Source: a virus (Duplodnaviria; Caudoviricetes). Taken from it: 51,150 nt of DNA. The notes below the pieces were generated by a model. That model worked only from the letters and a program-made list of their open reading frames with translations, ran no database searches and was not told the DNA's origin. A program made the position numbers and the translations under genes. Each line of letters begins with the position of its first letter. Position 1 is the first letter of the stretch. Where the stretch lies: IMG/VR virus record IMGVR_UViG_3300044653_000021, positions 1 through 51,150 of that record, one strand, 5' to 3'. This document shows positions 2,360-43,603 of this stretch, piece by piece.

Positions 2360-3616
2360 TTATTCAATGTTACAAATTGTTCCAGTTACTATAGTACCTG
2401 CTGGTGTTGTACCACTAAGTAATGCAGTAATAGCAAATGTTCCTGATGTTGCAGATGCTTGAATAATACCCCATGCTTGAAAGGGAGAATCTGTTACAGT
2501 AGTTAAAACAACTGTTGGTGTTGCAAATGGTACATTTCCTGCACTAGTTGAAGTAGCACTATTATAAGTAAATGCTTGTACTGCCGAAGCGCTTGATCCA
2601 ATTGATCCAATTAGACCATGACCAGTTTCAGTAGTGGGTGCTTGTGACGCATTCATTCCTAATGATATTTCAGGAGTAGTTCCAGCAGTAATAGAATAAC
2701 TACCATTACAAAACCAAGACCAAGTTTGTGCTGCATTCGGTAATGTCCAAGAACATATAGTAGTTGGAGAAGTTGAAAGGGTAATGGCACCATTTACTTT
2801 ACACTGATTTTGTAAAATTAACCCAGTATTATTAGAACTATTAACACTCCACGCTTCTGTTGTTCCACTACCAGTAGTACCTATACTAGCCCCCACCGCA
2901 CCAGTAGAAACTCCAGTTTGACTAGCTTTAAATGTTCCAGAATTTGTTATTTCAATTCCACCAGTAAAAATAGCAACTGCTATACCATTTGATAAGGCAC
3001 ATAAAATATTAGCCGAACATGCAGAAATACCTGTAGTATTATAAGAATTAAAAGTATACCCAGGAACAGTAGTTGAACCATTGGGTGCAATATAATTAGT
3101 ACCAGTATAAGTTAAAGTAGCACCATTATCAGTCAATAAACTATCAGGTCCAATAGTAGTACCACTTCCAGGATAAACACCTATCTGTCCAGTTGTACCT
3201 GTATTAACTGTACCAGAACCGCCACCAGCAGGATTATTTAAATATCCTGTAAGTGTAACGACAAGACTACCAGTGCCAGTAATAGAAGCAGCAGTATTAA
3301 TCCGAACATAATTCACCGTATGTGCTGTACTAGTAAAATTCCCACTACTAGTACATGTCTGTGACGCAATAATATCCCCGGAACCCCAACTACCAGTCCC
3401 GGTTGTACTACTATCAACTTCCACAGTACAAGCTGAAAGACTTCCAATTACATTCCATGATATCTGGTAATACTGTGTTCCACTACCAATAACAGGTAGT
3501 ATATACGGTGTTTGTACAGATAATGAATATGTCTGTGGAGGAGATTGTGTTGATAACTGACAAAAAGAAAAAGAAGATAACAACAAAATACACAAAAGTA
3601 AATTTATTTTTTTCAT
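2360..3616 (-). CDS. signal-peptide-bearing Thr/Ser/Gly-rich virion-module protein (fibre/decoration-like)
   Basis: MKKINLLLCILLLSSFSFC-Q signal peptide; N-domain paralogous to 5818-6549; GGGSGTVNTG linker typical of fibres. Confidence 0.65.
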   Translation of the reverse strand: MKKINLLLCILLLSSFSFCQLSTQSPPQTYSLSVQTPYILPVIGSGTQYYQISWNVIGSLSACTVEVDSSTTGTGSWGSGDIIASQTCTSSGNFTSTAHTVNYVRINTAASITGTGSLVVTLTGYLNNPAGGGSGTVNTGTTGQIGVYPGSGTTIGPDSLLTDNGATLTYTGTNYIAPNGSTTVPGYTFNSYNTTGISACSANILCALSNGIAVAIFTGGIEITNSGTFKASQTGVSTGAVGASIGTTGSGTTEAWSVNSSNNTGLILQNQCKVNGAITLSTSPTTICSWTLPNAAQTWSWFCNGSYSITAGTTPEISLGMNASQAPTTETGHGLIGSIGSSASAVQAFTYNSATSTSAGNVPFATPTVVLTTVTDSPFQAWGIIQASATSGTFAITALLSGTTPAGTIVTGTICNIE

Positions 3617-3629
3617 TGTTATCCTCTTT

Positions 3630-3917
3630 TTAATGATGATAAATACGTACTGTTCCAGTTAGCGTAATACCATTTATAGGTATCACAATCCCATCTGCAT
3701 GTCTTGATTGTCCTGTTCGGACAGTTTCTAGATCCGCAGCACCTTTTAAATAAGCAAAACTCTTCCCATTTGCTTGATTTATTGTTGCACTATCTGTGGT
3801 ATTTGTATACTGTTGAAACTCCACATTATCAATAAGACATTTATACGCAAACACTATCACAGGTCCAGCAGCAACATCCGCGGCCGTTATCACCCAAGGA
3901 TTTGATGTTACGTCCAT
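3630..3917 (-). CDS. hypothetical virion protein
   Basis: 95 aa, AGGAG RBS, in the structural operon. Confidence 0.6.
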   Translation of the reverse strand: MDVTSNPWVITAADVAAGPVIVFAYKCLIDNVEFQQYTNTTDSATINQANGKSFAYLKGAADLETVRTGQSRHADGIVIPINGITLTGTVRIYHH

Positions 3918-3934
3918 TATAATCTCCTATACAA

Positions 3935-4426
3935 TTACGGAGTTGTACGACCAAAGAAAACAGTAAAAGTAACTGGTGAATTACCTAGTGAATAATTAGC
4001 ACCACCAGAATTACCAATATAAATTGGCATTTGTTGTGTAGTAGCAAAAGACGCTGGACCTACAAATAAGATAGGTCCATTAATACTAATCGCACTAGCA
4101 GTCTGTGTTAAAATCGCACTAAGATCACTAGTAAGGGGATTTAAGTTTGTTACTGGACCATAAAATAATTTAAGGTTTCCACCATTCAATGTATATGCAG
4201 TCCCACCATAATCAAGTCGAACTGAATAAGTATCAACCCAAAGACATTGATAAATACTCGGTGTTGGTGTTAATTGAATAGGAGTTGTCTTAAGTAAATT
4301 CATCTGAGCAGCACTAACTTGTACCTGTGCCACTTCAAGAGTATACATGACATTCCCATTCTGCTGATTAACTGCTTGCCATAATGGATACGTTTGAATA
4401 TTCGGAAGTGAAGGTGATGTTGCCAT
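3935..4426 (-). CDS. hypothetical virion protein (beta-rich)
   Basis: 163 aa, GGAG RBS, in the structural operon. Confidence 0.6.
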   Translation of the reverse strand: MATSPSLPNIQTYPLWQAVNQQNGNVMYTLEVAQVQVSAAQMNLLKTTPIQLTPTPSIYQCLWVDTYSVRLDYGGTAYTLNGGNLKLFYGPVTNLNPLTSDLSAILTQTASAISINGPILFVGPASFATTQQMPIYIGNSGGANYSLGNSPVTFTVFFGRTTP

Positions 4427-4455
4427 TTGTTGTCTCCGTTAAAAGTTATAAAATT

Positions 4456-4734: not shown

Positions 4735-4758
4735 ATAATTAATCCTTATATATCCTAC

Positions 4759-4867: not shown

Positions 4868-4884
4868 AACCTATGTTAATAAAG

Positions 4885-5384: not shown

Positions 5385-5807
5385 TTACTTCACTGGTAAT
5401 GGTGTAATCTTTGGACTGGTATTTGTGGTAGTAGTAACTACTTCTTTCTTAGGCTCTACAAATGGATCCCACTTAGTAGTACTAGTACTCTCATGCTCCG
5501 TTAAACCCTCTGGTGATACCTTACCAGTAATTAACTGACTACCATCTCCTTCATTACTACTAGCACCACCATCAGCAACTTTATTAACATCACTTTCACT
5601 AACTACTGCATCTGATTTTAAAGTAGCAAAATAAGCATCCATACCATGAGCCATTAGATGTGAATCAAATTGACTCTTAGATGCTTGTTCTGTTCCTAAG
5701 CGACATTGAAAACCACAAAGACATTCACAGTAATACCTATACTGTGCAAAACTATTTGGTTGGTATTCATACTTAACCAACCCATGTTGAATCGGTGAAT
5801 CTGCCAT
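5385..5807 (-). CDS. hypothetical zinc-binding protein
   Basis: start moved to MADSP (AAGGAG RBS); CECLCGFQC...FDSHLMAH motif. Confidence 0.55.
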   Translation of the reverse strand: MADSPIQHGLVKYEYQPNSFAQYRYYCECLCGFQCRLGTEQASKSQFDSHLMAHGMDAYFATLKSDAVVSESDVNKVADGGASSNEGDGSQLITGKVSPEGLTEHESTSTTKWDPFVEPKKEVVTTTTNTSPKITPLPVK

Positions 5808-5817
5808 AAAATCTCCT

Positions 5818-6549
5818 TTAATACCCAATACAAGTATAACTAAACACATCAGAACTAGAAGTTGTAGTAATAGTAAAAGAACTAGTACTAGTATTCGTAA
5901 CTTTCAAAGCATTATTAGCAGCAGTAGTATTATCAGTTACATTACAAAAATACGATGTTGTAGCTGTAAATGCTGGGTTAATACCAGTAACTACACAAGT
6001 GGTAGAAGATGATGCTGGACAGGAACCGAATACAATACGACCAACAATGCCAAAAGTAGGACTGCAAGCAGCAGCAGTTCCACATAACATTAACTCCCCA
6101 ACAAGAGGATTATTTCCTATTTGACCAAAATAATTAAACTGAAAAGTACCTGTGGTTGTAGTAAGAGCTGTAATATTAACTCTTACATATGCCGCAGTAC
6201 CAATAAATGTATATGTCCCAGAGGAAGTACAAGTCTGTTGAGTACCCAACAATGTCCATGAACCAGTACCAGTAGATGACTGTTCCAACTCAATAGTACA
6301 AGTTGAAACAGTCGCTACAGAAGTCCACGTTAATGTATGTGACAAAACAAGACTATTCTGATACATTCCACCTTGGCCACCACAAGGGGCAATAGCAGCA
6401 GAAGTATTCACACCAGCAGCAGCAGTACATGCTACTACCGATGTTACTGGTCCATAACTTTGTACATATTGTGTTTGCTGTGCTTCGCTTAACCCCGCGG
6501 TCAAAACAAGAAAGGGGATTAATAATGCTAAACTCTTAAGAAACTTCAT
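5818..6549 (-). CDS. signal-peptide-bearing Cys/Thr-rich protein immediately downstream of the major capsid gene
   Basis: start moved to MKFLK (GGAG RBS); signal peptide ending SEA-QQ; N-domain shared with 2360-3616, C-domain shared with 41039-43603. Confidence 0.65.
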   Translation of the reverse strand: MKFLKSLALLIPFLVLTAGLSEAQQTQYVQSYGPVTSVVACTAAAGVNTSAAIAPCGGQGGMYQNSLVLSHTLTWTSVATVSTCTIELEQSSTGTGSWTLLGTQQTCTSSGTYTFIGTAAYVRVNITALTTTTGTFQFNYFGQIGNNPLVGELMLCGTAAACSPTFGIVGRIVFGSCPASSSTTCVVTGINPAFTATTSYFCNVTDNTTAANNALKVTNTSTSSFTITTTSSSDVFSYTCIGY

Positions 6550-6570
6550 ATTTATAATCTCCATTTGATA

Positions 6571-6608: not shown

Positions 6609-7562
6609 CTATGGTCCGTTTGAACCCCAAACACCAAGCCAATTATCAGGAACAGCCGTGAATCTTGACACAACAGATTCTTTAAGAGCCTTGGTATCAA
6701 AATCATCATCAAAGTCCGTTTTCGGCTTTTGGCGCCAAATAAACTTAAGATGATGATATTTCTTCTCACAAAGAGCAAACCATGCTCCGACAGACTGGAG
6801 ATAATTGCTAATCATGTAACCCAAATCTTCACCAAGAAGTGAGTTAATTTCGTTAGTTGCAGTCCCCGGTTTTCCCGGTGAACCAAGTAACTCACGAGCC
6901 AAGAATCTATTAGTAAAATGAATAAGAATAGATTTTGGGAAGTAAGTAACTGGCAAACCTTGTCCATCTACCATACCCTGAAATTGGTTAGTCATTAACT
7001 GAATTCCAGCAAAAGACAAATCAATATCAGTAGCAGGTCGATTAGGATAAGTACCCGGTGCTGAAATAATAGTACTAATACCGGGCGTGTATGAAGTAGC
7101 AGTAGGACCACCAAGTAAGGGATGTTGATTATTAAACAAGGTCACACCGTCAATACTCTTGACGGTGGAGAAACCAAGATTAATAATATTCCAAGGCACT
7201 AACTCTTCCGTAAATTGTTGCGAGCGAGCTAATGCTTTCGGAACCTGCTTAATAACCCCATACTGATCATCATCATGCAACTCAAATGACGAACGTGCAG
7301 CCATTCCATAAGTTAAGGGGATACTACGAATAGTACCACCCTGAATTAACCTTGTATAAAACAAAGGTGTATTCTCAGGCTTCAATGGCATAGGACCAGT
7401 TCCAGCAAATTCTAACTCATCCTTGTACATTGAAGTAATTGTTTCAACATTAAAGACAGCAGGATATTGAAGTTCTCTTTGATACATTTCATTCCATTGT
7501 ACAAAGATCTTTCTTTGTCCTGGTGCCATTAATTGAGCATACTGGCCCCGTACCATACTCAT
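6609..7562 (-). CDS. major capsid protein (HK97 fold, Mu gpT-like family)
   Basis: 317 aa; LMAPG.RKIF N-terminus, ELHDDDQYG, DGVTLFNNQHP and C-terminal W.GVWGS.G motifs; position after scaffold and decoration genes. Confidence 0.85.
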   Translation of the reverse strand: MSMVRGQYAQLMAPGQRKIFVQWNEMYQRELQYPAVFNVETITSMYKDELEFAGTGPMPLKPENTPLFYTRLIQGGTIRSIPLTYGMAARSSFELHDDDQYGVIKQVPKALARSQQFTEELVPWNIINLGFSTVKSIDGVTLFNNQHPLLGGPTATSYTPGISTIISAPGTYPNRPATDIDLSFAGIQLMTNQFQGMVDGQGLPVTYFPKSILIHFTNRFLARELLGSPGKPGTATNEINSLLGEDLGYMISNYLQSVGAWFALCEKKYHHLKFIWRQKPKTDFDDDFDTKALKESVVSRFTAVPDNWLGVWGSNGP

Positions 7563-9099: not shown

Positions 9100-9879
9100 T
9101 TAAGCCCTCGCTAGTACTTTCTGTTCTTCCGCAGCCATTTCAGCATTTTGATCTGCCCATTCTTTTGGAGTCATACCATAACGAGCAGCCTGCGCTTTTT
9201 CAATCTCTGTTAACATATCTTCTGGTTTCTTACCAGTATTATCATTACCAATATTACCATTCCCACCACCTCCACCGCCACCGCTGGTAGATGCTACGAG
9301 ATTATATTTACCTTCTCGTTTATCCGTATCTCGTTGAATTTCTTCTGCATGGGAACCCTTTACCATATTAATAATTTTCCCAAGAAGTTTATCAGGATCA
9401 AAATCTTTATTCATGGCAAAGTTCTCTGGCTTATAAGAACCCCACTCATCCATAATCTCTTTAGCAAGAGCTTCGTTCTTAAATAATGGTGAGGCCATTT
9501 TAGCACGATCTAATGCCAAGTCCATACGCATCTTAGTTGCATTGATGGCAGTAAAAGCAATAGATTGGCCTACTTTCTTATTAACGAATCCTACTGCATC
9601 GGTTAAAAAAGCAGCCGTATCATCTTCGGTCTGATTGTTGTTATTATTGTTATTGTTGTTATTATTTCCTTCACCCTCTTTATTAGTAGGTGTCCTAAGA
9701 CGAGTTTCTAATTCCCCAAGACTTTTTGTAAGAGCCTCTGTAACAGAAGTAGTAATCTTCGTTTCCATTGCAGTTAACTCTTCTTTAGTAACACCCTTTG
9801 CCTTTAACTCCGTAAGATCATCAGGATTCAATCCTGCTTTAACAAGATCCTCTTTCGTTAATTCTTTTCCCCAGGCCAT
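9100..9879 (-). CDS. putative capsid scaffolding protein
   Basis: helical, charged, poly-Asn and poly-Gly linkers, C-terminal LTEIEK.QA.RYGMTPKEW motif; between portal and MCP. Confidence 0.65.
   Translation of the reverse strand: MAWGKELTKEDLVKAGLNPDDLTELKAKGVTKEELTAMETKITTSVTEALTKSLGELETRLRTPTNKEGEGNNNNNNNNNNNQTEDDTAAFLTDAVGFVNKKVGQSIAFTAINATKMRMDLALDRAKMASPLFKNEALAKEIMDEWGSYKPENFAMNKDFDPDKLLGKIINMVKGSHAEEIQRDTDKREGKYNLVASTSGGGGGGGNGNIGNDNTGKKPEDMLTEIEKAQAARYGMTPKEWADQNAEMAAEEQKVLARA
9633..9667 (-). repeat. AAT/AAC trinucleotide tract encoding poly-Asn in the scaffold
   Basis: ttgttgttattattgttattgttgttattatt run on the plus strand. Confidence 0.8.
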
Positions 9880-12029: not shown

Positions 12030-12494
12030 TTACTTACCAAAAGGTTTAAAAACCGCAGGTACTGGTGCAATAGTTGGTGTTGGTACAGAGGCTATTACTG
12101 TTCCAGTACTATTAACACCATTTGAACTTAATGAGTTAAGAATTTCTGCTACAGCATTCGTTAAGTCTGTACAACCTTGGATAAACAAAGTTTCATTAGT
12201 GATTTGATGCCCACTTACTAATTCACTAGTCTTAACAATATTCGCCACCAACGGTGCCGCGGCAGCTAGTTTCTGTGGACCAGTACCCTGTCCTTGTAAC
12301 AAGGCTTCTGCCTGTACAACAACACCACCAATAGCAGTTAAATCATTTACAGCAGTACCTACACTACTTGTAACTCCAGGTGCTTTACTACCAAATAATG
12401 GTGTTACTAATGGCATAACACCAGTAGCAATAGCTATACCTTCTGCTAAATATTTACCTAACTTACTAAGAAACGTTAAAGCTCCATTTGCCAT
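12030..12494 (-). CDS. hydrophobic hypothetical protein (lysis- or virion-associated)
   Basis: 154 aa Ala/Val-rich, G.GPQKL motif, next to holin-like genes. Confidence 0.5.
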   Translation of the reverse strand: MANGALTFLSKLGKYLAEGIAIATGVMPLVTPLFGSKAPGVTSSVGTAVNDLTAIGGVVVQAEALLQGQGTGPQKLAAAAPLVANIVKTSELVSGHQITNETLFIQGCTDLTNAVAEILNSLSSNGVNSTGTVIASVPTPTIAPVPAVFKPFGK

Positions 12495-12501
12495 AAGACT
12501 C

Positions 12502-12789
12502 CTATTTCTTTTTATCTGGAAAAGGTTTCCAGGCTTGTTGTGGTAAAGGATTATTTACTTCATCCTCTTTCGTAGCTTTATTAACTTCAGTTACATTACT
12601 ATGATTATCTGAATCTTTTGCTGCTGCTGCCCCAAGACCAAGTAACAATCCCAACACTGCCGATCGCCAATTACAGGGCTGATTATTAATCCATTCTTGA
12701 ATACATACAACAGCCTGTGGGATAGTATATATAAATGCAATCAATGAAACTAAATTTGTTTTCCAATTCCTTTGTATATTCTGCCACAT
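12502..12789 (-). CDS. putative holin
   Basis: two hydrophobic segments, NWKT N-terminal motif, AAKD followed by a charged tail. Confidence 0.6.
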   Translation of the reverse strand: MWQNIQRNWKTNLVSLIAFIYTIPQAVVCIQEWINNQPCNWRSAVLGLLLGLGAAAAKDSDNHSNVTEVNKATKEDEVNNPLPQQAWKPFPDKKK

Positions 12790-12793
12790 TGTT

Positions 12794-13009
12794 TTAATAA
12801 TCCTTAGAGTCTTTCCAATAATTAGGATCTTTAGAACTTAAATACTTCTCAATCCTTGTTGTCTGTTGTTGCATGTCTTGTATGATTTTTAAATGTGTCT
12901 CATAATTATTCATCATACTCCCATACCCAACGGCTAGACCACCTATAAGTATTAGTACATGAAAAACGGTCCCTATATTAATTTCCCAATTTATTCTCGG
13001 AGTTTCCAT
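12794..13009 (-). CDS. small membrane protein (holin/antiholin-like)
   Basis: one TM segment followed by a coiled-coil-like tail. Confidence 0.5.
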   Translation of the reverse strand: METPRINWEINIGTVFHVLILIGGLAVGYGSMMNNYETHLKIIQDMQQQTTRIEKYLSSKDPNYWKDSKDY

Positions 13010-14990: not shown

Positions 14991-15311
14991 TTATCTCGCA
15001 AATGCACAGCTAAATCGACGCCGGAAATCGCGTCGATTATGGTATTTAAATCCTGTATTATTTTTAAGATGTAAATACAATCTATTAAGATAACACGCCA
15101 ACCATGCTCTGTAACTTATTTGAAATCTTCGTTCTACTATAATTGGTGATCTATCACATTTACTTTCAAATAATCCTACTTGAGAATTGCAAAAATCACA
15201 TAACCAACCACGTATTACATTAGTATCATGATTGTGATCTATTACCAACCTTTTTGTTTTTGTTTCCGCTGGTAATTTACCACAAATAAAACACATTGGC
15301 TGTGGTTTCAT
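14991..15311 (-). CDS. endonuclease VII-family (His-Me finger) nuclease, probably a free-standing homing endonuclease
   Basis: CFICG...LVIDHNHDTNVIRGWLCDFCN motif. Confidence 0.85.
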   Translation of the reverse strand: MKPQPMCFICGKLPAETKTKRLVIDHNHDTNVIRGWLCDFCNSQVGLFESKCDRSPIIVERRFQISYRAWLACYLNRLYLHLKNNTGFKYHNRRDFRRRFSCAFAR

Positions 15312-32101: not shown

Positions 32102-32366
32102 TGAGATGTATAGTGTTACAAAAGCTAAAAATTCAGATTATGCAACACCAAAAGAGGCACTACGTAATTTTAAGATGTTCGGTGCTTTTGGTGTTCTTGT
32201 TAGAATATCAGATAAAATATCAAGACTTAGAACAGTATTAGAAGATAAACGTGAATTTGCTGTAAAAGAAACTGCTTTTGATACCGTGACAGATATGGCA
32301 GTATATAGTGTAATTCTTAGAATTATAATGGAAGAAGAAGCTAAAGAAAATGAGTTTAATAAATAA
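32058..32366 (+). CDS. nucleotide-modification-associated domain 1 (DUF1599-like) protein
   Basis: KAKNSDY....LRNF...GVLVRISDKISRL...E...DT..D.AVY motif. Confidence 0.75.
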   Translation: MTQEQYLKRFQEIIDEMYSVTKAKNSDYATPKEALRNFKMFGAFGVLVRISDKISRLRTVLEDKREFAVKETAFDTVTDMAVYSVILRIIMEEEAKENEFNK

Positions 32367-33477
32367 CTTCGGTCCCGAAACAAGTCCTATTTGGGTCATA
32401 CTTGATTCTCCTTATGACGGAGATTCGGATATTGACCCAGTTACACAAATTGATAAATTAGGAATAATATTGAGTGGTGGTTATGGATATAATTTTAAAA
32501 AGATTTGGAAGATGGGTGGTCTTTCTCTTAGTGATGTTCACATTCGATCTAATCGCCCTTGTATCGGAGCATCGTATGTTAAAGAGAATGTACTTAGCAA
32601 TCTTCTTGGTGATATTGACAAATATCATCCTACTTTTATTGTTCCACTTTCTGATGAAGTTTTGAATTATTTAATCCCACACACAACACAAGCCAAAGAA
32701 AAGAATTCATCCCTTGGAAAGTGGGCTGGTTCCTTATTAACATCTAAATATATTTCATATCCACATTATATAATAGGGAGCCAGCCACCAGATTGGGTTA
32801 CGAAGAATTGGGCCTATAATGAAATCCAAGCCTTCATAGATTTTGGACATGTCCGTGAGGAATTTGAATACTGGACAAAATATGGAACTCTTAATCCACT
32901 ACCTAGACGTAATCTTATTACCCAACCATCTTATTCCGATCTTGTTGGTTATTTGCATGACTGTCTTAATGTTAGTATGGTGTCAGTCGATATTGAGACT
33001 ATCCGACCTAAGAAGGGTAGTACTTATTATAATATTAATTGCGGGTATCCTTACACTATTGCTCTTGCTAAGTCTCCCAAAGATGCAATAAGTTTCTCTT
33101 TCTGGGATTATACACCAGAACAATGTGTACAGATTTGGAGAATGTTAAATGAGATTCTTAGTAAAGTGCCTCAGATTGGGCAAAACTATTTTCTCTTTGA
33201 TAGTCATTATCTTGAAGCATTGGGATTTAGAATTTGTTTATCTTCGTGTTTCGACACCCTTATACGACACCATATATTATGGCCATCCCTTAAGCACGCA
33301 CTTCATTTTCAGACAAGACAATACACAAGAGAACCGTACTACAAAGATGAGGGACGAAACTTCAATGTAAAACGTAAAACACAGTTCATGCTATACAATG
33401 CCAAAGATGCAGCCGTTACTTTTGAAATTTATGAAGAACAAGAAAAAGAGTTTAAAGAACGTCCACATATTAGGTAA
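32350..33477 (+). CDS. DNA polymerase A N-terminal subunit: degenerate uracil-DNA-glycosylase-like domain plus 3'-5' exonuclease
   Basis: GP..SPIWVILDSP UDG-like start; ExoI VSVDIET, ExoII QNYFLFD, ExoIII YNAKDA. Confidence 0.8.
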   Translation: MSLINNFGPETSPIWVILDSPYDGDSDIDPVTQIDKLGIILSGGYGYNFKKIWKMGGLSLSDVHIRSNRPCIGASYVKENVLSNLLGDIDKYHPTFIVPLSDEVLNYLIPHTTQAKEKNSSLGKWAGSLLTSKYISYPHYIIGSQPPDWVTKNWAYNEIQAFIDFGHVREEFEYWTKYGTLNPLPRRNLITQPSYSDLVGYLHDCLNVSMVSVDIETIRPKKGSTYYNINCGYPYTIALAKSPKDAISFSFWDYTPEQCVQIWRMLNEILSKVPQIGQNYFLFDSHYLEALGFRICLSSCFDTLIRHHILWPSLKHALHFQTRQYTREPYYKDEGRNFNVKRKTQFMLYNAKDAAVTFEIYEEQEKEFKERPHIR

Positions 33478-34393: not shown

Positions 34394-34510
34394 ATGTCCG
34401 GCGTTAGAAAACCTATAGAAGAACGTTTTGCCGTTAAGTATAAAATAGAAGATAAAGGATATTTAACTCCATTAAGTGAGTATAAAATTGCAAAACTTAA
34501 TAACAAGTAA
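34394..34510 (+). pseudogene. possible remnant of an HNH endonuclease N-terminus (38 aa)
   Basis: MSGVRKPIEERFAVKYKIEDKGYLTP resembles phage HNH N-termini but stops before any nuclease motif. Confidence 0.35.
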
Positions 34511-36014
34511 TTATGAACATAGATTAGCATTTCATTTCCATAATATAGATCGGAGAGGTCTACTTATCCATCCTGACCTAAAAGAACAAGCTCGTCTTAA
34601 ATGTGAAGAAGAACTAACAAACAACTGTGCTTATCTTAGTAACTTCTGGAATACAGAAGTCTATATTGGCAGTGAAAATGCTCCAGAAAATCCAACACGT
34701 CCGACAATGAATCTGAATGCAAATTCAGGGAACAATACTGTTCTGATAAATCTTACTCGTCTTGGATATAACGTCCCTAAGATTCGTAAGAAAAATATCG
34801 AAACAGACTCCTATGAACTAGAAGAAAGTGCGGGAGAGTTAGCATTAGTAAAATTATTAGCCGACCCATCCCGATGGCCCTCTCCTTCTGCTGGAGAGGG
34901 CATTAAAAAGTTATTGGAAACGAGAGAAGTAATCACTTTTAGGAATAGGTATATCAATGCGCGACTTTATCATAACATATATTTTGCCAATCATAATGTG
35001 GCAGCTACGGTTACTGGGCGTAGAGGAAGTAAAAAGACTATCTTTGGATTCGGAGGAAATGACCAGAATTTCCCGTCCAGAGGAAGATTATCTGATATAT
35101 GGAAAGAATGTGTTGTGGTACGTCCGGGTAAACTCTTCTTCTTTGTTGACCAAGTAAGTGCCGAGGATTGGCCAGTACAAGCATTGTCGGAGAATCACAC
35201 AGCTTTAGCACAAATGATTGCTGGTGTTAATAGACATTATATTTTTGCTAGTCAGATTTTTGGTTTATCCGTAGATGAGTTAAAAAAGAAACGTTCTAAT
35301 AAAGACGGTTCTTACACAAAAGAACAACAAGACGAAGCAGAGATGCAGTATTATATGGGAAAGAAGGCCCGACATAGCAACAATTATGGTATGCAACCAA
35401 CTACTTTCTCCGAAGCACTTGCAAAAGAAGGCGGTTTTACTGTTCCAATAGAAGCTTGTAAAAACATTCTTAGTATCGTAGACAGGATCGACCCAAATGT
35501 TAAACGAATCTTTCATAAGTATATCCAAGATAAACTTGCCAACTCCGCACATATGCTTCAAACACCATTGGGACGGGAAAGAGCCTTCCTTGGATTACGT
35601 AGTGGTGAAAAGAATTACTCGATTCTTAATGAAGCATATTCTTACGTCCCCCAAAGTACAGTCGGTGATAATACGGGACTTGCAGTTTGCGAACTCGAAG
35701 CATGTCACAATTATATACTCCAAGATGGACATGACAGTTTATGTCAAGAAATACCTGATAACGAACAGACACTCAGAACGGTATTTAAAAACACTGCAAA
35801 TGCGTTTAAGAGAAGGATTACGTTTCATAACGGAGTAGAGATAGAGATTCCGATAGAAGGTCAAATTGGGTTTAATTGGAAAGATAAGATTAAGTTAGAA
35901 GAGTATAGCGAAGATTGTTTAATGAATGCATATAAGGAACTAAAGGAGAAATATGGAAATAGCAGAACTACAACAAGTAGCATTCAACAATGCCAAGAAA
36001 TTGGGATGGTGTGA
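34476..36014 (+). CDS. polA: family A DNA polymerase, polymerase-domain subunit
   Basis: ATVTGR.S...N.QNFP, motif A FVDQVSAED, motif B GKKARHSNNYGM, TPLGRER, PQSTVGD, motif C GHDSL; start codon uncertain. Confidence 0.9.
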   Translation: MSIKLQNLITSNYEHRLAFHFHNIDRRGLLIHPDLKEQARLKCEEELTNNCAYLSNFWNTEVYIGSENAPENPTRPTMNLNANSGNNTVLINLTRLGYNVPKIRKKNIETDSYELEESAGELALVKLLADPSRWPSPSAGEGIKKLLETREVITFRNRYINARLYHNIYFANHNVAATVTGRRGSKKTIFGFGGNDQNFPSRGRLSDIWKECVVVRPGKLFFFVDQVSAEDWPVQALSENHTALAQMIAGVNRHYIFASQIFGLSVDELKKKRSNKDGSYTKEQQDEAEMQYYMGKKARHSNNYGMQPTTFSEALAKEGGFTVPIEACKNILSIVDRIDPNVKRIFHKYIQDKLANSAHMLQTPLGRERAFLGLRSGEKNYSILNEAYSYVPQSTVGDNTGLAVCELEACHNYILQDGHDSLCQEIPDNEQTLRTVFKNTANAFKRRITFHNGVEIEIPIEGQIGFNWKDKIKLEEYSEDCLMNAYKELKEKYGNSRTTTSSIQQCQEIGMV

Positions 36015-36289: not shown

Positions 36290-37516
36290 GTGCCCCGTAT
36301 ACTTAAGAAACCTTGGTTAGATGCGTTTAGTGATTATTGTCAAGGAATGGAAACGCCACGGGAGTATATTAATTGGGTAGGGATATCAGTTCTATCATCA
36401 GCATTGAAACGACGATGTTACATCTGGTATAGAGGAATAAAGTTTTATCCTAATCAATATATAATCCTAGTCGGCCCACCCGGTATTGGAAAAGGGGAGA
36501 GTATAAATGCTGCGACGAAAATAGCGAATGAAGTAAAAGCAATTAATTATATTAAGGACTGGGTTACTCCACAGGAAATTATAGAAGAGTTAAGCGCGGG
36601 CTTTCAGCATATCAATTTAAAGCCCGGACAGGTGATAACAACTAATGTTGTACAAGATCACACATGTTGTATCATGGCTCCGGAATTGGCAGTATTTTTA
36701 CAGCAGTATGATAATTTGCACAGCCTTATGTGCGCTTGGTGGGATCAAAATAAGTTCGATTACAAGACTAAGAACAAAGGAAAACATGTTATTGAGGATA
36801 TGTCAGTTTCTCTTCTTGGTGGCTGCGTCCCTGACTACGTTCGGAGTCTTAGTAAAGATCGACTCGCTCCCATTACTGGTGGCTTTACTGCTCGTACTAT
36901 ATTTGTTTATGCTACTGAAAAGTTTCAACTTATAGATAATAGTTTTGGTGCTCCAAACGGTAGTAAAACAAAAATCCATGATGACTTAGTAAATGATTTA
37001 CGACATATCACTACTCTAACGGGCGAATTAAGGATAAGCAAAGATGCCGAAACACTCTGGCAACAAGTCTACCAAGAACACAACAAACGGGGAGCTATTG
37101 ATTCTGACGCTAGTGCGAACTTTAAAAGCAGAATCTCCAGTCATATTATCAAAACGGCAGTTACAATCAGTATTTCTGACTCCGATAACCTCGTCATCAC
37201 AAGAGATCACCTTGACACAGCTATACGACTTATTGAAGGGATCAGAGATAAAGTTGATATTGTGTTTAGATCCATCGGTGAAAGTCCTCTTGCCGTGACG
37301 ATGGATAAGGTGATTAAGTTGGTGGATATGAAGGGAATAGTACTTTATAAGGAGTTGTTAAAATATGTAATGAGAGACGCTACACAGGATCAGTTAAATG
37401 GTATATTACAAGTTCTCGTAAAAACCGGAATGATTGTGGAAAAGATTAATGTAAATAGCCAAGTAGAATATTGGAGTACAAATTTTATCAAAACACAAGG
37501 AGCAGGGAATCCATGA
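36290..37516 (+). CDS. DUF3987/YfjI-like P-loop ATPase (putative replicative helicase)
   Basis: YPNQYIILVGPPGIGKG, PEL..FL, GGFTARTIFVY motifs and a winged-helix-like C-terminus. Confidence 0.7.
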   Translation: MPRILKKPWLDAFSDYCQGMETPREYINWVGISVLSSALKRRCYIWYRGIKFYPNQYIILVGPPGIGKGESINAATKIANEVKAINYIKDWVTPQEIIEELSAGFQHINLKPGQVITTNVVQDHTCCIMAPELAVFLQQYDNLHSLMCAWWDQNKFDYKTKNKGKHVIEDMSVSLLGGCVPDYVRSLSKDRLAPITGGFTARTIFVYATEKFQLIDNSFGAPNGSKTKIHDDLVNDLRHITTLTGELRISKDAETLWQQVYQEHNKRGAIDSDASANFKSRISSHIIKTAVTISISDSDNLVITRDHLDTAIRLIEGIRDKVDIVFRSIGESPLAVTMDKVIKLVDMKGIVLYKELLKYVMRDATQDQLNGILQVLVKTGMIVEKINVNSQVEYWSTNFIKTQGAGNP

Positions 37517-38106
37517 GTAAGAAAGTGAATATTGTTTTAGAAGAAATTGATCCACAATGGGCCAACATTAAGGGCCAATATCTTATTTCCCCCATCTACG
37601 GTGGCAGTGGACGTGTTCTAGTACAAGAAGATCCATACAAATCAAAGTATGAATGTTCCAAATGTCATGGAGTAGGCCACTTAGGAGAAGTTTGTAAATG
37701 GTGCCTTGGAACTAAATTTGAAAAGGGCAAAGAAGAAAATGGTTACTGTCGTGATTGCACCGTTGGCGCAGATAATAACGCGGCAGGAAAAACATTAGGT
37801 CATGTAGCATGTGACTTATGTCATGGTACAGGCGGTTCAATTGTAGTACCGGATGAAAATCAACGAAATACTACTACTGGAGATATTCTTGCTATAAGTA
37901 ATAGAGATATATTAGAAGTCAGGGTTGGTGATAAAGTAATGTTTACAAACTATTCAGGTAGTCCCTTTAAATTCATGGATATAGATCTTCGTATAATTAT
38001 AGAACGTGATTTATTAGGTAAAGTAAAACAACTTAAACATAACGTAGAAGGTCTTAATGAAGGGAATTTTGCTGATTTAGAAAATACTGGAGTACCGAGG
38101 GAATAA
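37513..38106 (+). CDS. groES: GroES/Cpn10 co-chaperonin with an inserted DnaJ-type zinc-finger domain
   Basis: GroES motifs RVLV, GSIVVP, TTGDILAI, VRVGDKVMF..YSG and IIERDLLG flank four CxxC(xGxG) repeats. Confidence 0.8.
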   Translation: MSKKVNIVLEEIDPQWANIKGQYLISPIYGGSGRVLVQEDPYKSKYECSKCHGVGHLGEVCKWCLGTKFEKGKEENGYCRDCTVGADNNAAGKTLGHVACDLCHGTGGSIVVPDENQRNTTTGDILAISNRDILEVRVGDKVMFTNYSGSPFKFMDIDLRIIIERDLLGKVKQLKHNVEGLNEGNFADLENTGVPRE

Positions 38107-38108: not shown

Positions 38109-38531
38109 ATGCCTATGAACCCAATAGAAGCACTAGCAGATTGTATCTTTCAATTTGAAGGCTATTTCCGTCCCGGTAGTTCTGTTGGTGGAGTAAAGGG
38201 AAGTACATCATGGAGGAATAGGAATCCGGGGAATCTTCGGCCAACATCAACAGCACAATTAGCAGATGAGAAAGGTTATAGAATATTTATTTCTCTTGCT
38301 GAAGGTTGGAATGCTTTGTTAAATGATATTCAGGCAAAAGTAATCTTCGGCACACATGGTATAACCCCGGCCAGTACTCTTACTGATTTCTTTAACATCT
38401 ACGCACCTGCATTGGACAAGAATGACCCAGAACAATACAGCCGTCAAGTTGCTCTTTGGCTTACGAAAATATATAATGCCCAAGTAATGCCAACGACGAC
38501 ATTGAAGGAAATTATGGAGTTGGGAAAATAA
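38109..38531 (+). CDS. lysozyme-like protein (candidate endolysin or virion muralytic protein)
   Basis: FEG...SWRNRNPGNLR...F....GW.AL...YAP..D.NDPEQY motif. Confidence 0.65.
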   Translation: MPMNPIEALADCIFQFEGYFRPGSSVGGVKGSTSWRNRNPGNLRPTSTAQLADEKGYRIFISLAEGWNALLNDIQAKVIFGTHGITPASTLTDFFNIYAPALDKNDPEQYSRQVALWLTKIYNAQVMPTTTLKEIMELGK

Positions 38532-38532
38532 C

Positions 38533-38787: not shown

Positions 38788-41037
38788 TTAATGCGCAGTC
38801 CAGCTACTACCATTACATAAAGCCTCTACGGTATTACTACCACTTCCTACGATATTAGCATTATATGTTACTGTAGTAGAATCTGTAACAATAGCTGTCT
38901 GTCCCTTTAAATTTCCTACGCATGATGGTAAATTAGCAAATACTTGTGGTACACTTCCTATTAATGATATTGCTGTACTTCCAAGTGATGAACTTGGAAA
39001 TAATGTCGGCCCTCCAGCATTTGTCCCTGCCCCAGCAGCACCATACCATGAAGCTACTACATATTGAGTAACACCATTACGATTTCCAATAGTTACTTGT
39101 ATTTGAGGAATAGAGGAACTATTTAGTTTTATAGTAGGACTGGTAAATACTGGTTGGTTGTTATAAAAATAATTTACTGGCACATCTAAAGTACAGGACA
39201 CAGGTTCAAAGACTGCACAAGAAACATCTAGAATCATAGTAGCCATTCTATTAGTATTATTAGGCCAGCTAAGAATTAAACGTCCTTGTAAATCTCCTGA
39301 TTGTCCTGTTCCTGGTATGGCTTGTGCTATAACATAAGTTCCATCTGCTGAAATATTTTTATAACCTGTAACAATCATCGGTGGTTGTTTCTGTAGATTA
39401 GAAGCTGTAGTTCCAGGATAATCTAAAGCTAACCAAGGTTCAACAGAATAAGTTCCTCCAGATGTTATATTTGGTATAGCGATACCATATAATCCTGCTC
39501 CTCCAGTTATCTGAATATTTCCTTCAGCTTGTACATTTCCAGTAGAACCTACTGCTATAGCATTAGGATTCGATCCTACAAACTCACCAAAAACATGAAG
39601 TTGACTTTCTACTATTTGCCCATTAATTGTAAGAAAAGAAGATGGAGCTACGTCCATATTACCTTTTAAATTAATCGTTCCATGATAAATAGTAGCTACA
39701 TTATCTATAAGTAGTCCGATTTGATTTGCTTCAATATTAAACCATAAATCAAAATCACTATATCCAAAACTAAAAGTTCCTCCATTTATAGTTAAATGTA
39801 ACTCATTTGTATTTCCAGTTATTGTTCCTCCTATACCATAACCAAAATGGACATTATGCATATACGTCCGCTCTGTCCATCCACCGGAAATATTTTCTAG
39901 TAGTACTCCATTAGCTCCTGTTCCCCAAGTATTTACCGCTGTTCCAGTACATCCTGATATTGTAAGATCCTCCCATGTAGAACCTTGAAGTGTCCCAGAA
40001 TGGATACAATTTATAGCTGACGATGTTCCTACTAAGGAAAATCCACGTAATACTCCAGCTTTTTCTAATGTAAATGGCACCATTTGCCATCTAATACCAT
40101 CACCTGAACCAGTATAATTTAATACAGTTAATAAACTTCCTGCACCTATTAAAGATTGTGAAGGATTTAACATATTTATTGTTGTAGTATATGTATATGT
40201 CCCTGCGGGTATTTGTACTATACATATATTATTACAATTTGAAAAAGCAGCATTTACCCAAGCACCTAGATCACTCCCTGAACACCAAGTAGGTGCTATA
40301 GAGGTACTACATATTGTTGGATTATATATACCATTATCTGTTCCATTTACACTATTGGATGTAAATAATGTATTAGATGTATTATTCCATGCAAAATAAG
40401 GACTAGCACTAAATCCTCCACTACCATTATTATAAGGTATTTGAGTACTATTTCCTGGAACTCCAAGATTTCCAAGTGCCTGCCATGAATTAGCAGGACA
40501 TGGACCTACATAACATCCTTTAAATAATCCAGAAGTAGTATTCCAATAAATACTCCCTGTACCACCATTAGCTTCATTATCTGAATAAGCTCTTTGCAAA
40601 GTAGGACCTGTGTTCACTACAGGTACTGTGAGATAACTACTAAGACTTGCACTAAGATTTTGCGATGTTCCTGTTACAAATATTAGTCCAGTACTACAGT
40701 TTGCTGTTGTGGCATTAGGGCATATAATAAAGTTCCAACGGGAACCAGCGGGTGTTAATTTGGCATTATCATCGAGAGATATAGTGAAGGTTCCTAAACT
40801 GTTTGTAGTAATAACATTATTTGGACTTGCTATAGGAACACCACTATTAAGCAAAGTTGCCGGATTACCAAAAGGGGGAACTATATTAATAGTAACCGTA
40901 GCATTACTCCATACCTGTATACTAGAATCAGTAAGGGTAGCAGTAACACTAGTACAGTTTCCGACACACTGACTATAAAGATTAGATGAAATAGAGAATA
41001 GTATAAAAAGAAAAGTAATCCTTATAATATTTTTCAT
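38788..41037 (-). CDS. tailspike/tail-fibre-like protein with a pectate-lyase-like beta-helix and an N-terminal signal peptide
   Basis: start moved to MKNII; D.GAWVNAA...VQIPAGTY...SLIGAG...T.L beta-helix entry motif; C-terminal LPSC...G..A.VTDS...CNGSSW fibre motif. Confidence 0.7.
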   Translation of the reverse strand: MKNIIRITFLFILFSISSNLYSQCVGNCTSVTATLTDSSIQVWSNATVTINIVPPFGNPATLLNSGVPIASPNNVITTNSLGTFTISLDDNAKLTPAGSRWNFIICPNATTANCSTGLIFVTGTSQNLSASLSSYLTVPVVNTGPTLQRAYSDNEANGGTGSIYWNTTSGLFKGCYVGPCPANSWQALGNLGVPGNSTQIPYNNGSGGFSASPYFAWNNTSNTLFTSNSVNGTDNGIYNPTICSTSIAPTWCSGSDLGAWVNAAFSNCNNICIVQIPAGTYTYTTTINMLNPSQSLIGAGSLLTVLNYTGSGDGIRWQMVPFTLEKAGVLRGFSLVGTSSAINCIHSGTLQGSTWEDLTISGCTGTAVNTWGTGANGVLLENISGGWTERTYMHNVHFGYGIGGTITGNTNELHLTINGGTFSFGYSDFDLWFNIEANQIGLLIDNVATIYHGTINLKGNMDVAPSSFLTINGQIVESQLHVFGEFVGSNPNAIAVGSTGNVQAEGNIQITGGAGLYGIAIPNITSGGTYSVEPWLALDYPGTTASNLQKQPPMIVTGYKNISADGTYVIAQAIPGTGQSGDLQGRLILSWPNNTNRMATMILDVSCAVFEPVSCTLDVPVNYFYNNQPVFTSPTIKLNSSSIPQIQVTIGNRNGVTQYVVASWYGAAGAGTNAGGPTLFPSSSLGSTAISLIGSVPQVFANLPSCVGNLKGQTAIVTDSTTVTYNANIVGSGSNTVEALCNGSSWTAH

Positions 41038-41038
41038 A

Positions 41039-43603
41039 TTAGAATCCATTACATCCAAATACAATAGTATCTCCACTAGTTGCAGTCATCTTAAGATTTA
41101 CACCAGTCGTTGTAGTGGCTGATTGCCTAATAGCTACAGTAGGAACATTTGTTAAATCTGAATACCAACAAACAAATCCATTAGCTGGGGAAAATGGCAA
41201 AGAACTAAAATTAAGGCTAATAGTACAAGCAGAACTAGTTCCTATTACAAAAGAACCATAAGTAGGACCACCCTTCAAAGTTGTTTCAGAACAGCCATTA
41301 TTAGAAGTAAATAATGTCCCTACAGATGTGTATAATGCTGAAGAATTTATAGCAAGAACTGGTCCACTCATTCCAGAGCCATCGGTATTTATACATGTAT
41401 TCTCAATTATAGGATGTGTTAAATTCCCATGCTCATACGTAATCATAGCATCTGAGCATTTGGCTCCGGTGATATTATCTATTAATGCATTCCCAGACCC
41501 TATACCGAAATCAACACTATCAAGTCTTATATTAGTACAAGTAGAACCAAAACCAGCAGTTCCTATAGTAATTCCTACTCCTCCCGTATTAAAAGCATGA
41601 AAACCAGTATTAAATGTTCCCGATGTATTATAGGTATTATAAGCCTCTTGAAATGAAGCCTGTCTAGAAACATCACCACATACATCTATATCAGTAGCAA
41701 AATATTCTGCGTGTAAATGATCAAATTGAAAAGTAGAACCGGCAATACAAAAGGCACATCCTTGTGTAGCTCCACTACCCACCATCTGTGGAATACCTGA
41801 ACCACCACCTACAGACTTATCGGCTATACTTATTGTTATATGTCCTTTAAATCTTCCTGGTCCTTGATTATTAGCAACACCTGTAACAAGTAACCCCATA
41901 AAATTATTATTTTGACATGGATCAGGTGATATTGTGGCTACAGAAGTACCACCACCACAGGACATAAGTGTATTAATAGGAACTGTCCCTGTAGAACATC
42001 CTGCACTTCCAATATTACAAGAACATCCACCTGTCTTAGTACAATATTCAGGATTTATATTTCCACTAAAAGGCCCAGAACCCATAGAATTAGTATCCCC
42101 ACTAGCTGTTCCTCCGTAAGCTCCTGATTGGTCCCAACGAGCATAATAGTCCATACAATTAGCAATATGCATACCACCTGGACCAAAGCCCGTTTCTTCT
42201 TCTCCTTGTGCTTGAACAAAACCTCCAGAGGCAGGAAAGAAGTGGCAGTTAATTACATAACCATCCATATAAGCATCATATGCTCCGCCTCCGCCTCCTG
42301 TTCCTAAAGCTACTACTGGAGTTTCTAAATTAGCAGTTCCAGTACATCCTGAGTTACATGATCCTGTGACACCACTTACAACCCATAATGTAAATATTTG
42401 TGGAGAAGTTGTTTGTGTTACCGCCTTTACAAACCAAGCATTATTCTCAGATACTACATTACTTCCATATATGTGTATAATGCGATTTGTTTGTAAAGCA
42501 TTTAAATCTGTTGTAGTAACATCAAAAGGTGTACCTGAAACTGTTACAGTAGCTACATTACCTGAGACAACAAAACTTGTTAATGTCCCTACCTGTGCTT
42601 GAAATCCACCATTAACACAATTATCTAAAGCTGGATTACATGGACCAATAAAAGAATTTGATGGATTTTGTAAATTTGAATTCCCTCCCATTCCTACCAT
42701 ATGGACAGTATTAGGAATTTCAAAAGTACTCATACCATCTAACTTCATCCAATGATATCCTAAATGACTATCTTCAAATATCCCACTCATTCCAGTAAGG
42801 GGCTGTCTGGAGCATGTTTGTATTCCGGTCATATCATCTATAATATGAAGAGACACACCACCAGCACCGAAAGTACTAACAATATTGTGTATTGCCACAC
42901 ATTCATCAGCATATAATGAACATACTGTACTAGACCCACACCATGAGGAAACGGCTATGGAATAATTAAGTGGATCTAAAGATGTAGCTAATAGTCCTCC
43001 CCCCACCGGTTGTCCTTGTGCCATATTATTAACAGCAGTTCCACTTGTACTAATCCAATTAGTATTAGTAGAACAAGGATTAGCTATACAAAGGTGAATA
43101 GTATTATCAGTAAGATTATAATAAGCACTCCCTAACCCAGACACAGCCGCTTCTGGATTGGCAAAGAGTCTTGGATATTGAAAAGCACTTGCTGCGATAG
43201 TAGGGAGAGTATTATTTATTTGAGTTGATAAATTAATAGTTGATCCATATACATCCTGTAATGATGTACTACATGAATTATTCGCCTGAGCACAGACAGT
43301 AAAAGCCCATAAGGAACCAGTAGGAAAAATAGTGTGATCATCAGTGAGAGTAATTGTAAATGTCCCTGAGCCACTCATTGTACTCTGTACAACACAAGGA
43401 AGTGAACTACCTCCCATATTTACACCATTTACTTTATACTGATTACATGCAATAGTTCCAGTAATAGGTGTAAGAGTAGCTATTACTGTCCCATTAGCGT
43501 AAGGAAAACCATCTGGACTTACAATGGTGGCAGTAACAGATGTACCGAAAGAAAAACCACTTAAAAAAAGTAATAAACTACAAAGAGTAAACAGTTTTCT
43601 CAT
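41039..43603 (-). CDS. large Cys-rich tail-fibre/spike-like protein with an N-terminal signal peptide
   Basis: MRKLFTLCSLLLFLSGFSFG-T; N-domain paralogous to 38788-41037; Gly/Thr/Ser/Cys-rich. Confidence 0.65.
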   Translation of the reverse strand: MRKLFTLCSLLLFLSGFSFGTSVTATIVSPDGFPYANGTVIATLTPITGTIACNQYKVNGVNMGGSSLPCVVQSTMSGSGTFTITLTDDHTIFPTGSLWAFTVCAQANNSCSTSLQDVYGSTINLSTQINNTLPTIAASAFQYPRLFANPEAAVSGLGSAYYNLTDNTIHLCIANPCSTNTNWISTSGTAVNNMAQGQPVGGGLLATSLDPLNYSIAVSSWCGSSTVCSLYADECVAIHNIVSTFGAGGVSLHIIDDMTGIQTCSRQPLTGMSGIFEDSHLGYHWMKLDGMSTFEIPNTVHMVGMGGNSNLQNPSNSFIGPCNPALDNCVNGGFQAQVGTLTSFVVSGNVATVTVSGTPFDVTTTDLNALQTNRIIHIYGSNVVSENNAWFVKAVTQTTSPQIFTLWVVSGVTGSCNSGCTGTANLETPVVALGTGGGGGAYDAYMDGYVINCHFFPASGGFVQAQGEEETGFGPGGMHIANCMDYYARWDQSGAYGGTASGDTNSMGSGPFSGNINPEYCTKTGGCSCNIGSAGCSTGTVPINTLMSCGGGTSVATISPDPCQNNNFMGLLVTGVANNQGPGRFKGHITISIADKSVGGGSGIPQMVGSGATQGCAFCIAGSTFQFDHLHAEYFATDIDVCGDVSRQASFQEAYNTYNTSGTFNTGFHAFNTGGVGITIGTAGFGSTCTNIRLDSVDFGIGSGNALIDNITGAKCSDAMITYEHGNLTHPIIENTCINTDGSGMSGPVLAINSSALYTSVGTLFTSNNGCSETTLKGGPTYGSFVIGTSSACTISLNFSSLPFSPANGFVCWYSDLTNVPTVAIRQSATTTTGVNLKMTATSGDTIVFGCNGF

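Follow-up and report, generated by a model that had tools for sequence, protein, structure and literature searches.

Can a tailed phage send some of its receptor-binding proteins through the periplasm before they reach the virion? Textbook tailed-phage morphogenesis is entirely cytoplasmic, and classical podovirus tailspikes and fibres are leaderless, folding and assembling in the cytoplasm. Routing a virion part via the periplasm would bring one more compartment into assembly and raise a problem of timing, and such a route would explain disulfide-stabilised, pyroglutamate-capped receptor-binding proteins in some phages. The question is raised by the IMG/VR record IMGVR_UViG_3300044653_000021, a complete virus record on a single contig, of which all 51,150 bases were analysed and are called the window here. 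Five of its late genes encode proteins that start with Sec-type signal peptides (leaders), among them both of the large fibre/spike-type proteins. Judged from their sequences, these leaders are real and lie far beyond chance, and it is highly probable that the proteins carrying them are exported.

The initial annotation had named five such proteins, and all five open reading frames (ORFs) were present on the minus strand, with the N-termini that it gave, in the translations (Table 1). By inspection and by a hydropathy screen, each N-terminus fits the Sec plan, in which a basic n-region precedes some 8-15 hydrophobic residues (the h-region) and positions -3 and -1 are small, and Gln was read at +1 of the inspected sites in four of the five, the exception being the protein of 854 amino acids (aa). 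The screen, which covered 76 non-overlapping ORFs, marked four of the five leader proteins and none on the plus strand. The fifth, the 749-aa protein, gave 2.8 at offset 19 when read from an upstream GTG and qualifies when read from the ATG at 41037. Its ORF extends without a stop to the GTG at 41076, and that of the 243-aa protein to an ATG at 6564; in homologues and in database gene calls, the start corresponds to the ATG at 41037 or 6549, respectively. The only other ORF marked, 5385-5849, was rejected as an upstream-start artefact, its orthologue in G001 (a relative's 51,571-bp IMG/VR record with terminal repeats and 100% estimated completeness) beginning at an internal Met. PHROGs gave a family for none of the five leader proteins, and Pfam at E<=0.01 gave nothing for four of them, the 124-aa protein having one unrelated sub-threshold match.

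The leaders are kept in homologues. A search with residues 1-200 of the 749-aa protein against 5.8 billion proteins returned 30 homologues of 413-1052 aa (family B), and a search with the 243-aa protein returned 55 (family A); the leader is present in 29 of the 30 and in 54 of the 55. The family-B exception is a short call of the G001 ORF, in which the leader is present from an upstream Met, and the family-A exception is a truncated gene call. The sequences of the leaders drift while the mature starts are conserved (QC[VI]GNCT.VTATLTD in family B and QQT.Y.QS.GP in family A), which is the pattern of a cleaved targeting signal that is selected for its physical character.

The same holds across whole genomes. 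G001 has five leader-bearing proteins. The first, of 250 aa, is 61% identical to the 243-aa protein; the second, of 920 aa, has only its first ~140 residues in common with the 418-aa protein; and the third, of 1069 aa, has an N-terminal stretch of ~190 residues that is 58% identical to the 749-aa protein and 30% to the 854-aa protein, the rest being unrelated. For the remaining two (507 and 151 aa) the window offers no counterpart over the full length, and a homologue of the window's 124-aa protein is absent from G001. In L014, a third complete relative on a 51.8-kb contig, four leader proteins in a row (1366, 561, 528 and 124 aa) end the late operon, and the one of 124 aa, which lies here in the fibre locus, is a 42%-identical homologue of the window's 124-aa protein. 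In L012, a 1121-aa leader protein follows a family-B protein. In the window, G001, L014 and L012, every large fibre-type ORF that lies distally in the late operon and has a visible N-terminus begins with a leader, and a neighbouring ORF in L010 without a visible leader is cut by the contig end. The C-domain homologues of the 854-aa protein (P0088, P0090, P0091 and P0092, which are all the complete ones other than the window's own) have other N-domains, and all of them start with leaders.

The residue after the cleavage site was examined further. At the inspected sites, Gln takes position +1 in nine of ten leader proteins, four of five in the window and all five in G001. A crude cleavage predictor based on positions -3 and -1 was discarded, as many of its cuts fell a few residues too early and its count of Gln at +1 was too low, and a site-free motif count was used instead, scoring a small residue followed by Q no more than 14 residues past the hydrophobic core. 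The motif was found in 24 of 31 family-B proteins, 48 of 54 family-A proteins and eight of nine others; control windows taken from these proteins gave a fraction of about 0.2. In the portion available of the survey by Bochtler et al. (PMC5837995), Gln follows the signal peptidase I site in a mean of 71% of substrates in Bacteroidetes, with shares mostly below 20% in Chlamydiae and Spirochaetes and below 9% in most Chlorobi; the few high outliers outside Bacteroidetes include Ignavibacterium. The phage proteins are like these Q-rule substrates in having Gln at +1 (nine of ten, against the phylum mean), and differ from them in that the substrates described there are host proteins, whereas here they are fibre-type proteins of a lytic phage. 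As the Q-rule leaders come together with a low guanine-cytosine content (34-41%), a Bacteroidota-type host is the best inference for the window phage.

The cysteines give a second kind of signal. The five leader proteins hold 72 in 2,406 residues (3.0%), against 60 in 6,626 residues (0.9%) in the remaining 25 late ORFs that reach 90 aa, seven of which have none. The initial annotation had noted multiple cysteines in all five, and past the proposed cleavage sites there are 8, 10, 2, 16 and 32 in the order of Table 1; the mature leader proteins of G001 have 10, 32, 12, 2 and 28. The mature count is thus even in all ten, as it is in 20 of 23 family-B proteins (with largely unrelated C-domains) and 37 of 37 family-A proteins, compared with four of the 18 other late ORFs that have any cysteine. 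Relatedness inflates the family counts, and the ten proteins of the window and G001 include several unrelated C-parts. Within the family alignments, cysteines of a pair mostly occur or are missing together: counted as both, neither or one only, the family-B pairs 24-28, 175-180 and 106-114 gave 14, 17 and 0, 20, 10 and 1, and 29, 0 and 2, respectively, and the family-A pairs 41-56 and 177-185 gave 30, 2 and 0, and 25, 7 and 0. Paired and even cysteines are the signature of a protein in which all are disulfide-bonded, pointing to folding in an oxidising compartment.

It could be supposed that the hydrophobic N-segments are not cleaved export signals at all but membrane anchors or assembly helices, the proteins folding in the cytoplasm as ordinary fibres do. 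The 854-aa protein, without Gln at +1, would agree with this. However, the n/h/c layout and the small-residue-Q site are kept where the leader sequence itself drifts, and the cysteines are paired and even, with threefold less cysteine in the other late ORFs, so that we consider this explanation very improbable indeed. The claim of the initial annotation that the proteins are exported and disulfide-folded in the periplasm gains strong indirect support from the leader conservation, the Q-rule, the cysteine pairing and the even counts. From these patterns we infer, with good support, Sec translocation, cleavage by signal peptidase I and disulfide folding in the periplasm.

Table 1. Leader-bearing proteins, their parts and landmark genes of the late operon in the window
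Feature	Coordinates	Strand	Remark
418-aa leader protein	2360-3616	-	leader MKKINLLLCILLLSSFSFC then Q, 19 aa
243-aa leader protein (family A)	5818-6549	-	leader MKFLKSLALLIPFLVLTAGLSEA then Q, 23 aa
124-aa leader protein	15311-15685	-	leader MKRLYIIAALLFLAAIGQCAAA then Q, 22 aa
749-aa leader protein, fibre/spike-type	38788-41037	-	leader MKNIIRITFLFILFSISSNLYS then Q, 22 aa
854-aa leader protein, fibre/spike-type	41039-43603	-	leader MRKLFTLCSLLLFLSGFSFG then T, 20 aa
Predicted signal peptide, 418-aa protein, residues 1-19 (...FSFC/Q)	3560-3616	-	translation
Predicted signal peptide, 243-aa protein, residues 1-23 (...LSEA/QQ)	6481-6549	-	translation, family alignment
Leader of 124-aa protein, residues 1-22	15620-15685	-	translation
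Predicted signal peptide, 749-aa protein, residues 1-22 (...NLYS/QC)	40972-41037	-	family alignment, leader counts, Q position
Predicted signal peptide, 854-aa protein, residues 1-20 (...FSFG/T)	43544-43603	-	only leader without Gln at +1
N-domain A of 418-aa protein, residues ~39-143	3188-3502	-	homologous to 243-aa protein
N-domain B, residues ~23-190 of 749-aa protein	40468-40971	-	Cys pairs 24-28, 106-114, 175-180
Small terminase	15687-16241	-	PHROGs/Pfam
Endonuclease VII	late operon, beside 15311-15685	-	PHROGs/Pfam
Large terminase	13069-14958	-	phrog_38, 9.1e-46
Portal-sized protein, 655 aa	10039-12006	-	sole database match is an annotated portal, 23% identity
Major capsid protein (Mu gpT-like)	6609-7562	-	PHROGs/Pfam
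'Virion structural protein', 447 aa	996-2339	-	PHROGs/Pfam

Export beyond the periplasm was considered as well. A lipoprotein reading, with signal peptidase II, was rejected, as none of the five leaders has a lipobox: the leader of the 418-aa protein, ending in FSFC, has F at -1 and does not fit one, and in the 749-aa protein the Cys is at +2, behind Q. A lipobox pattern scan of all frames gave a single internal false match. Type IX secretion cargo was rejected too, since Pfam gave no C-terminal sorting domain in the five proteins, though a divergent domain could escape it. No known Bacteroidota route past the periplasm is evident for the leader proteins from their sequences. This bears on the possibility that the proteins are exported and then displayed on the envelope of the infected cell via their N-domains, serving adhesion, receptor masking or as a decoy, in the manner of the MAT fibres of Bdellovibrio. 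According to the portion available of PMC10769870, these share with the window's proteins a signal peptide, a conserved beta-rich N-domain (presumed to bind a surface element) and exchangeable phage-fibre-like tips, and differ in being chromosomal, in being shown on the predator's own surface and in that many have the S74 chaperone domain. As no known surface route is evident, and as Pfam found no S74 domain in the leader proteins, display on the infected cell seems improbable to us.

What the exported proteins do is addressed by their domain build. There are two families of N-domains, A, comprising the 243-aa protein and the N-parts of the 418-aa and the G001 920-aa proteins, and B, comprising the N-parts of the 749-, 854- and 1069-aa proteins; the 749- and 854-aa proteins share 31% identity over N-domain B. 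The AlphaFold2 (AF2) model of N-domain B is a transthyretin/carboxypeptidase-regulatory-like beta sandwich with a neck (predicted local distance difference test, pLDDT, ~80-94), and a fold search (VIA) returned a generic transthyretin-like sandwich with Z <=8.2, in the tool's unspecific range. For the 243-aa protein, the AF2 model (mean pLDDT 81.5) has the leader helix and two beta-sandwich domains; its fold matches in the PDB are weak (best E 4.7e-4, template modelling (TM) score 0.23) and include modules that bind collagen or carbohydrate, a binding domain from the short tail fibre of a cyanophage, and XepA, an exported protein of PBSX. As modelled, these fold matches do not tell virion docking from other roles. 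By sequence, the PDB gave no match for the three large leader proteins, and in a protein atlas look-up with residues 1-200 of the 749-aa protein the scores were all <0.9, which makes the matches no more than leads.

The C-parts vary. That of the 418-aa protein is unique, and that of the 854-aa protein is rich in Cys. In the AF2 model of the 749-aa protein only residues ~24-190 are confident and the C-part is of low confidence, and the top names in BFVD for this poor model (TM ~0.1) were phage 'pectate lyase superfamily' and 'P22 tailspike N-terminal'. The C-domain, putatively beta-helix-like, has relatives in 550 cluster representatives (E<=1e-3). When 40 of these were made into a profile, it gave a weak match to rhamnogalacturonase A (E 0.005), and PF12708, K1-lyase_C and Pectinesterase were each matched by one of the 40. 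Elsewhere in family B the C-parts include a GDSL/SGNH domain (P0005) and PF12708 (Pect-lyase_RHGA, 2e-14, in P0016). A polysaccharide-depolymerase-type C-domain is likely for family B and weakly indicated for the window's 749-aa protein.

Phage fibres and tailspikes of the P22 gp9 and T7 gp17 types have a particle-binding N-domain and a variable, often beta-helical C-part, and are encoded at the end of the structural operon. In the window and its relatives, a conserved N-module is likewise combined with exchangeable C-parts (between the window and G001, N-domains that are 58% identical precede unrelated C-parts), and the genes of the 749- and 854-aa proteins are at the distal end of the late operon, as are their equivalents in G001, L014 and L012, the 749-aa gene being the last. 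The five leader genes total 7,179 bases, or 14% of the genome. Those of the 418- and 243-aa proteins are mid-operon, the latter directly downstream of the major capsid gene. The description of all five as virion-module proteins does not hold for the 124-aa protein, whose gene is set between the small terminase and endonuclease VII genes, beside the terminases; for the large proteins, a fibre/spike identity would follow from their build and position.

A different explanation accepts export and denies the virion role. The leader proteins could be soluble proteins of the periplasm that act as binders or as enzymes (depolymerases or esterases, for example), the particle using another, leaderless protein for recognition; they would act on nascent capsule, O-antigen or exopolysaccharide, thereby destroying or excluding receptors, or strip neighbouring cells after lysis. 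The C-domains are enzyme-like (GDSL, pectate-lyase-like, and an ORF in L010 that is glycosidase-like with an NEP motif), and 93 of the 147 beta-helix relatives listed have leader-like starts, many without a long N-domain, as in secreted enzymes. Bacteria also export a tailspike-like enzyme of their own: in the portion available of PMC7949094, WceF of Pantoea stewartii is a trimeric beta-helix with a tailspike fold that acts on exopolysaccharide, differing from the window's proteins in being bacterial, exported folded by Tat and without phage context. Similarly, the available portion of PMC10367356 describes five Q-rule genes in Porphyromonas gingivalis prophages that have no assigned function and are discussed as host envelope modifiers; these belong to temperate phages and are not described there as fibre-type or virion proteins.

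Leaderless candidates for recognition would also be needed. The initial annotation had seen no fibre candidate lacking a signal peptide, which holds for large ORFs; three leaderless slots (3935-4426, 43964-44623 and 46120-47715) also differ between the window and G001. Against a non-virion role, the conserved ~190-aa N-domain with exchangeable C-parts resembles a docking module, the genes occupy fibre-gene positions and a large share of the genome, no large leaderless fibre candidate is seen, and analogous proteins of Cellulophaga phages were found with virions by tandem mass spectrometry (MS/MS). In both of its forms, enzymes confined to the periplasm or acting on surface polysaccharides and neighbouring cells, we regard this alternative as unlikely, if well within reach.

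The Cellulophaga proteins came into view through a BFVD match, after which cultured Bacteroidota phages were examined. In phi10:1 (KC821618.1, Assiduviridae), the consecutive gp091-gp094, of 345, 401, 777 and 317 aa, are labelled 'structural protein; annotation based on experimental MS/MS proteomics analysis', and their leaders, MKKILLLLLFISASLSA, MRKLLLISLFLTSVLSFG, MKKTIYILSILLLTISGVSA and MKHTISIVLFFILSLGLNA, are each followed by Q. The adjoining gp095, a pectate lyase, is leader-bearing too. Twelve phi10:1 proteins have virion-proteomics notes, of which these four bear leaders; the other eight, portal, minor capsid, capsid, connector, gp083, gp087, gp088 and gp090, are leaderless. The MS/MS status of the Cellulophaga proteins is taken from the GenBank notes alone; the virion proteomics itself was reportedly published by Holmfeldt in PNAS in 2013. 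In phi46:3 (KC821622.1, of the podovirus family Pachyviridae), gp079-gp083 have leaders followed by Gln, gp079-gp082 being labelled structural and gp083 hypothetical, with the RefSeq names pectate lyase, virion structural protein and tail fiber protein in the module. Parts of this module are common to 24 Cellulophaga phage records. Within it, gp081 and gp082 (L016, 34513-37690) are adjacent and start alike, with the same leader and first mature residues (MKHTFNIVLFFILSLGLNAQT), before their sequences part; the leader and mature start seem to move as one module.

Like the window's proteins, the Cellulophaga leader proteins have Sec-type leaders with Gln at +1, are encoded consecutively at the distal end of the tail module, and have N- and C-parts that are mosaic between phages. 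They differ in having few cysteines (0-4) and no disulfide signature, and in belonging to other phage families. On these comparisons they are best read as an independent, analogous case and not as one family with those of the window. The initial annotation had offered two fates for the exported proteins, docking onto virions at lysis or action on the surface of the infected cell. Docking gains a precedent from the Cellulophaga proteins, in that leader proteins of phi10:1 are annotated as virion proteins by MS/MS, and it is by analogy only that the window's proteins would be said to join the virion. This analogy, together with the absence of a large leaderless fibre candidate, is why we propose the leader proteins as receptor-binding appendages.

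The proposed course of events would be as follows. A lytic, podovirus-like phage would express the leader proteins late, as part of its structural operon, and they would cross the inner membrane unfolded as substrates of Sec and signal peptidase I. The leader would be cut off, in four of the five exposing a Gln for cyclisation by the host, and folding would follow in the oxidising periplasm, every cysteine ending up in a disulfide. The 749-, 854- and 418-aa proteins may be host-recognition fibres or spikes, each with an N-terminal docking domain and an exchangeable binding or depolymerase part. Once holin and endolysin breach the envelope, the exported proteins could meet the particles built in the cytoplasm and dock via their N-domains. 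N-domain B would probably dock at the tail, and for N-domain A the head or neck is a possible site, because the 243-aa gene adjoins the capsid gene. For this full chain, from export to receptor-binding appendages that join the particle at lysis, we see the balance as even.

Several points weigh against it. The leaders were called by inspection and a hydropathy rule, not by a trained predictor, and we infer the fibre identity of the C-domains from weak matches. Docking after lysis has no worked-out precedent and would need efficiency. Virion MS/MS can pick up co-purifying envelope proteins, and in BLASTP the ten Cellulophaga leader proteins gave no match below E 0.3 to the ten of the window and G001. 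None of the five tailspikes and fibres (gp22-26) of crAss001 (MH675552) has a leader, and the export route is thus not needed in Bacteroidota phages. Neither the capsid protein nor N-domain B had a relative among the GTDB representative genomes. Finally, the host O-glycosylation motif, D[ST][AILVMT], is not enriched here (6 observed and 6.3 expected).

The genome around these genes is that of a phage distant from cultured ones, with a single tRNA-Leu(TAA). The late operon occupies the minus strand, where it starts at 16241, reaches position 1 and carries on from 51150 to 38788, and the replication genes are on the plus strand at 17318-38748. The plus-strand genes include a two-ORF DNA polymerase A, a DUF3987-type primase, and Sak4-like, PD-(D/E)XK, FtsK-like ATPase, GroES-like and endolysin-like genes, and no integrase was seen among the genes recognised in the window. 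Among cultured-phage records, the terminase, the portal and the 749- and 854-aa proteins had no near relative: the closest terminase there is 27.5% identical and the 854-aa protein had zero matches, as it had none in an IMG/VR pattern scan. A terminase search led to four IMG/VR loci. G001 is syntenic with the window, with identities of 90% for the capsid, 75% for the portal and 77% for the terminase. The ends of the window's record (50794-51150 and 1-45) cut one gene, whose G001 orthologue has 132 aa; joining end to start puts the gene halves in different frames, a few residues short of that orthologue. A few bases seem to be lost at the junction, and a terminal direct repeat was not found in the window.

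Some other genes deserve mention. An ATP-grasp enzyme (GARS_A, 1.2e-9; 44611-45888, minus strand), 71% identical in G001 and in L014, is encoded in the late operon directly upstream of the fibre-type genes; it may serve to modify virion or fibre proteins. Of its neighbours 43578-43961 and 43964-44623, one is conserved (47%) and the other replaced in G001. Three consecutive minus-strand ORFs, 46120-47715, 47721-49040 and 49049-49981, encode cysteine-free, low-complexity proteins of 531, 439 and 310 aa that look like podovirus internal virion or ejection proteins, and a BLAST counterpart of the 531-aa protein is absent in G001. The protein in the scaffold position (9100-9879, minus strand) has a run of 13 Asn and a Gly run. 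Between the large terminase and the portal, three small membrane-type proteins of 71, 95 and 154 aa (12030-13009, minus strand) are candidate lysis proteins; the endolysin-like protein (38109-38531) is without a leader, and the lipobox pattern scan of all window frames gave no o-spanin-like ORF.

The DNA polymerase A is split into an exonuclease ORF (32350-33477, plus strand) and a polymerase ORF (34476-36014, plus strand), which match phrog_17 at positions 552-831 and 838-1242 and have ~1 kb of small ORFs between them; the same split is found in G001. In the early region, a LAGLIDADG homing endonuclease and an FtsK/SpoIIIE-like ATPase (1.6e-29) are at 21482-21898 and 24750-25883 (both plus strand), respectively. 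A GroES/Cpn10 domain (3.2e-9) at 37471-38106 (plus strand) is behind a Cys-rich, zinc-ribbon-like N-terminal extension, a fusion that is kept in G001, L014 and L012; the Cellulophaga phage phi46:3 likewise encodes two cpn10 genes.

No description of signal peptides on tailed-phage fibres, tailspikes or structural proteins, and no remark on the leaders of the Cellulophaga virion proteins, was found in the literature searched, which left most subscription journals uncovered. The portions available of PMC5723332, PMC6199706, PMC12014285 and PMC13288928 do not address signal peptides on fibres. The case of the window is a sequence-unrelated, unusually cysteine-rich variant of a feature that cultured Bacteroidota phages also have, apparently unremarked.

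Taking the window's uncultured family and the cultured Cellulophaga phages together, a two-compartment class of tailed phages can be proposed, in which heads and tails are built in the cytoplasm and Sec-exported, pyroglutamate-capped, disulfide-linked fibres join them at lysis; we put this forward tentatively, the balance tilting slightly against it. If true, fibre attachment would be a post-lysis, extracytoplasmic step of virion morphogenesis, and the Sec system, signal peptidase, glutaminyl cyclase and thiol oxidases of the host would be host factors for infectivity. Recombinant depolymerases and fibres of such phages would need periplasmic or oxidising expression, and annotation pipelines that treat a signal peptide as counting against a virion role would mislabel such genes. 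As the cultured Cellulophaga phages share the feature, the question could be tested there.

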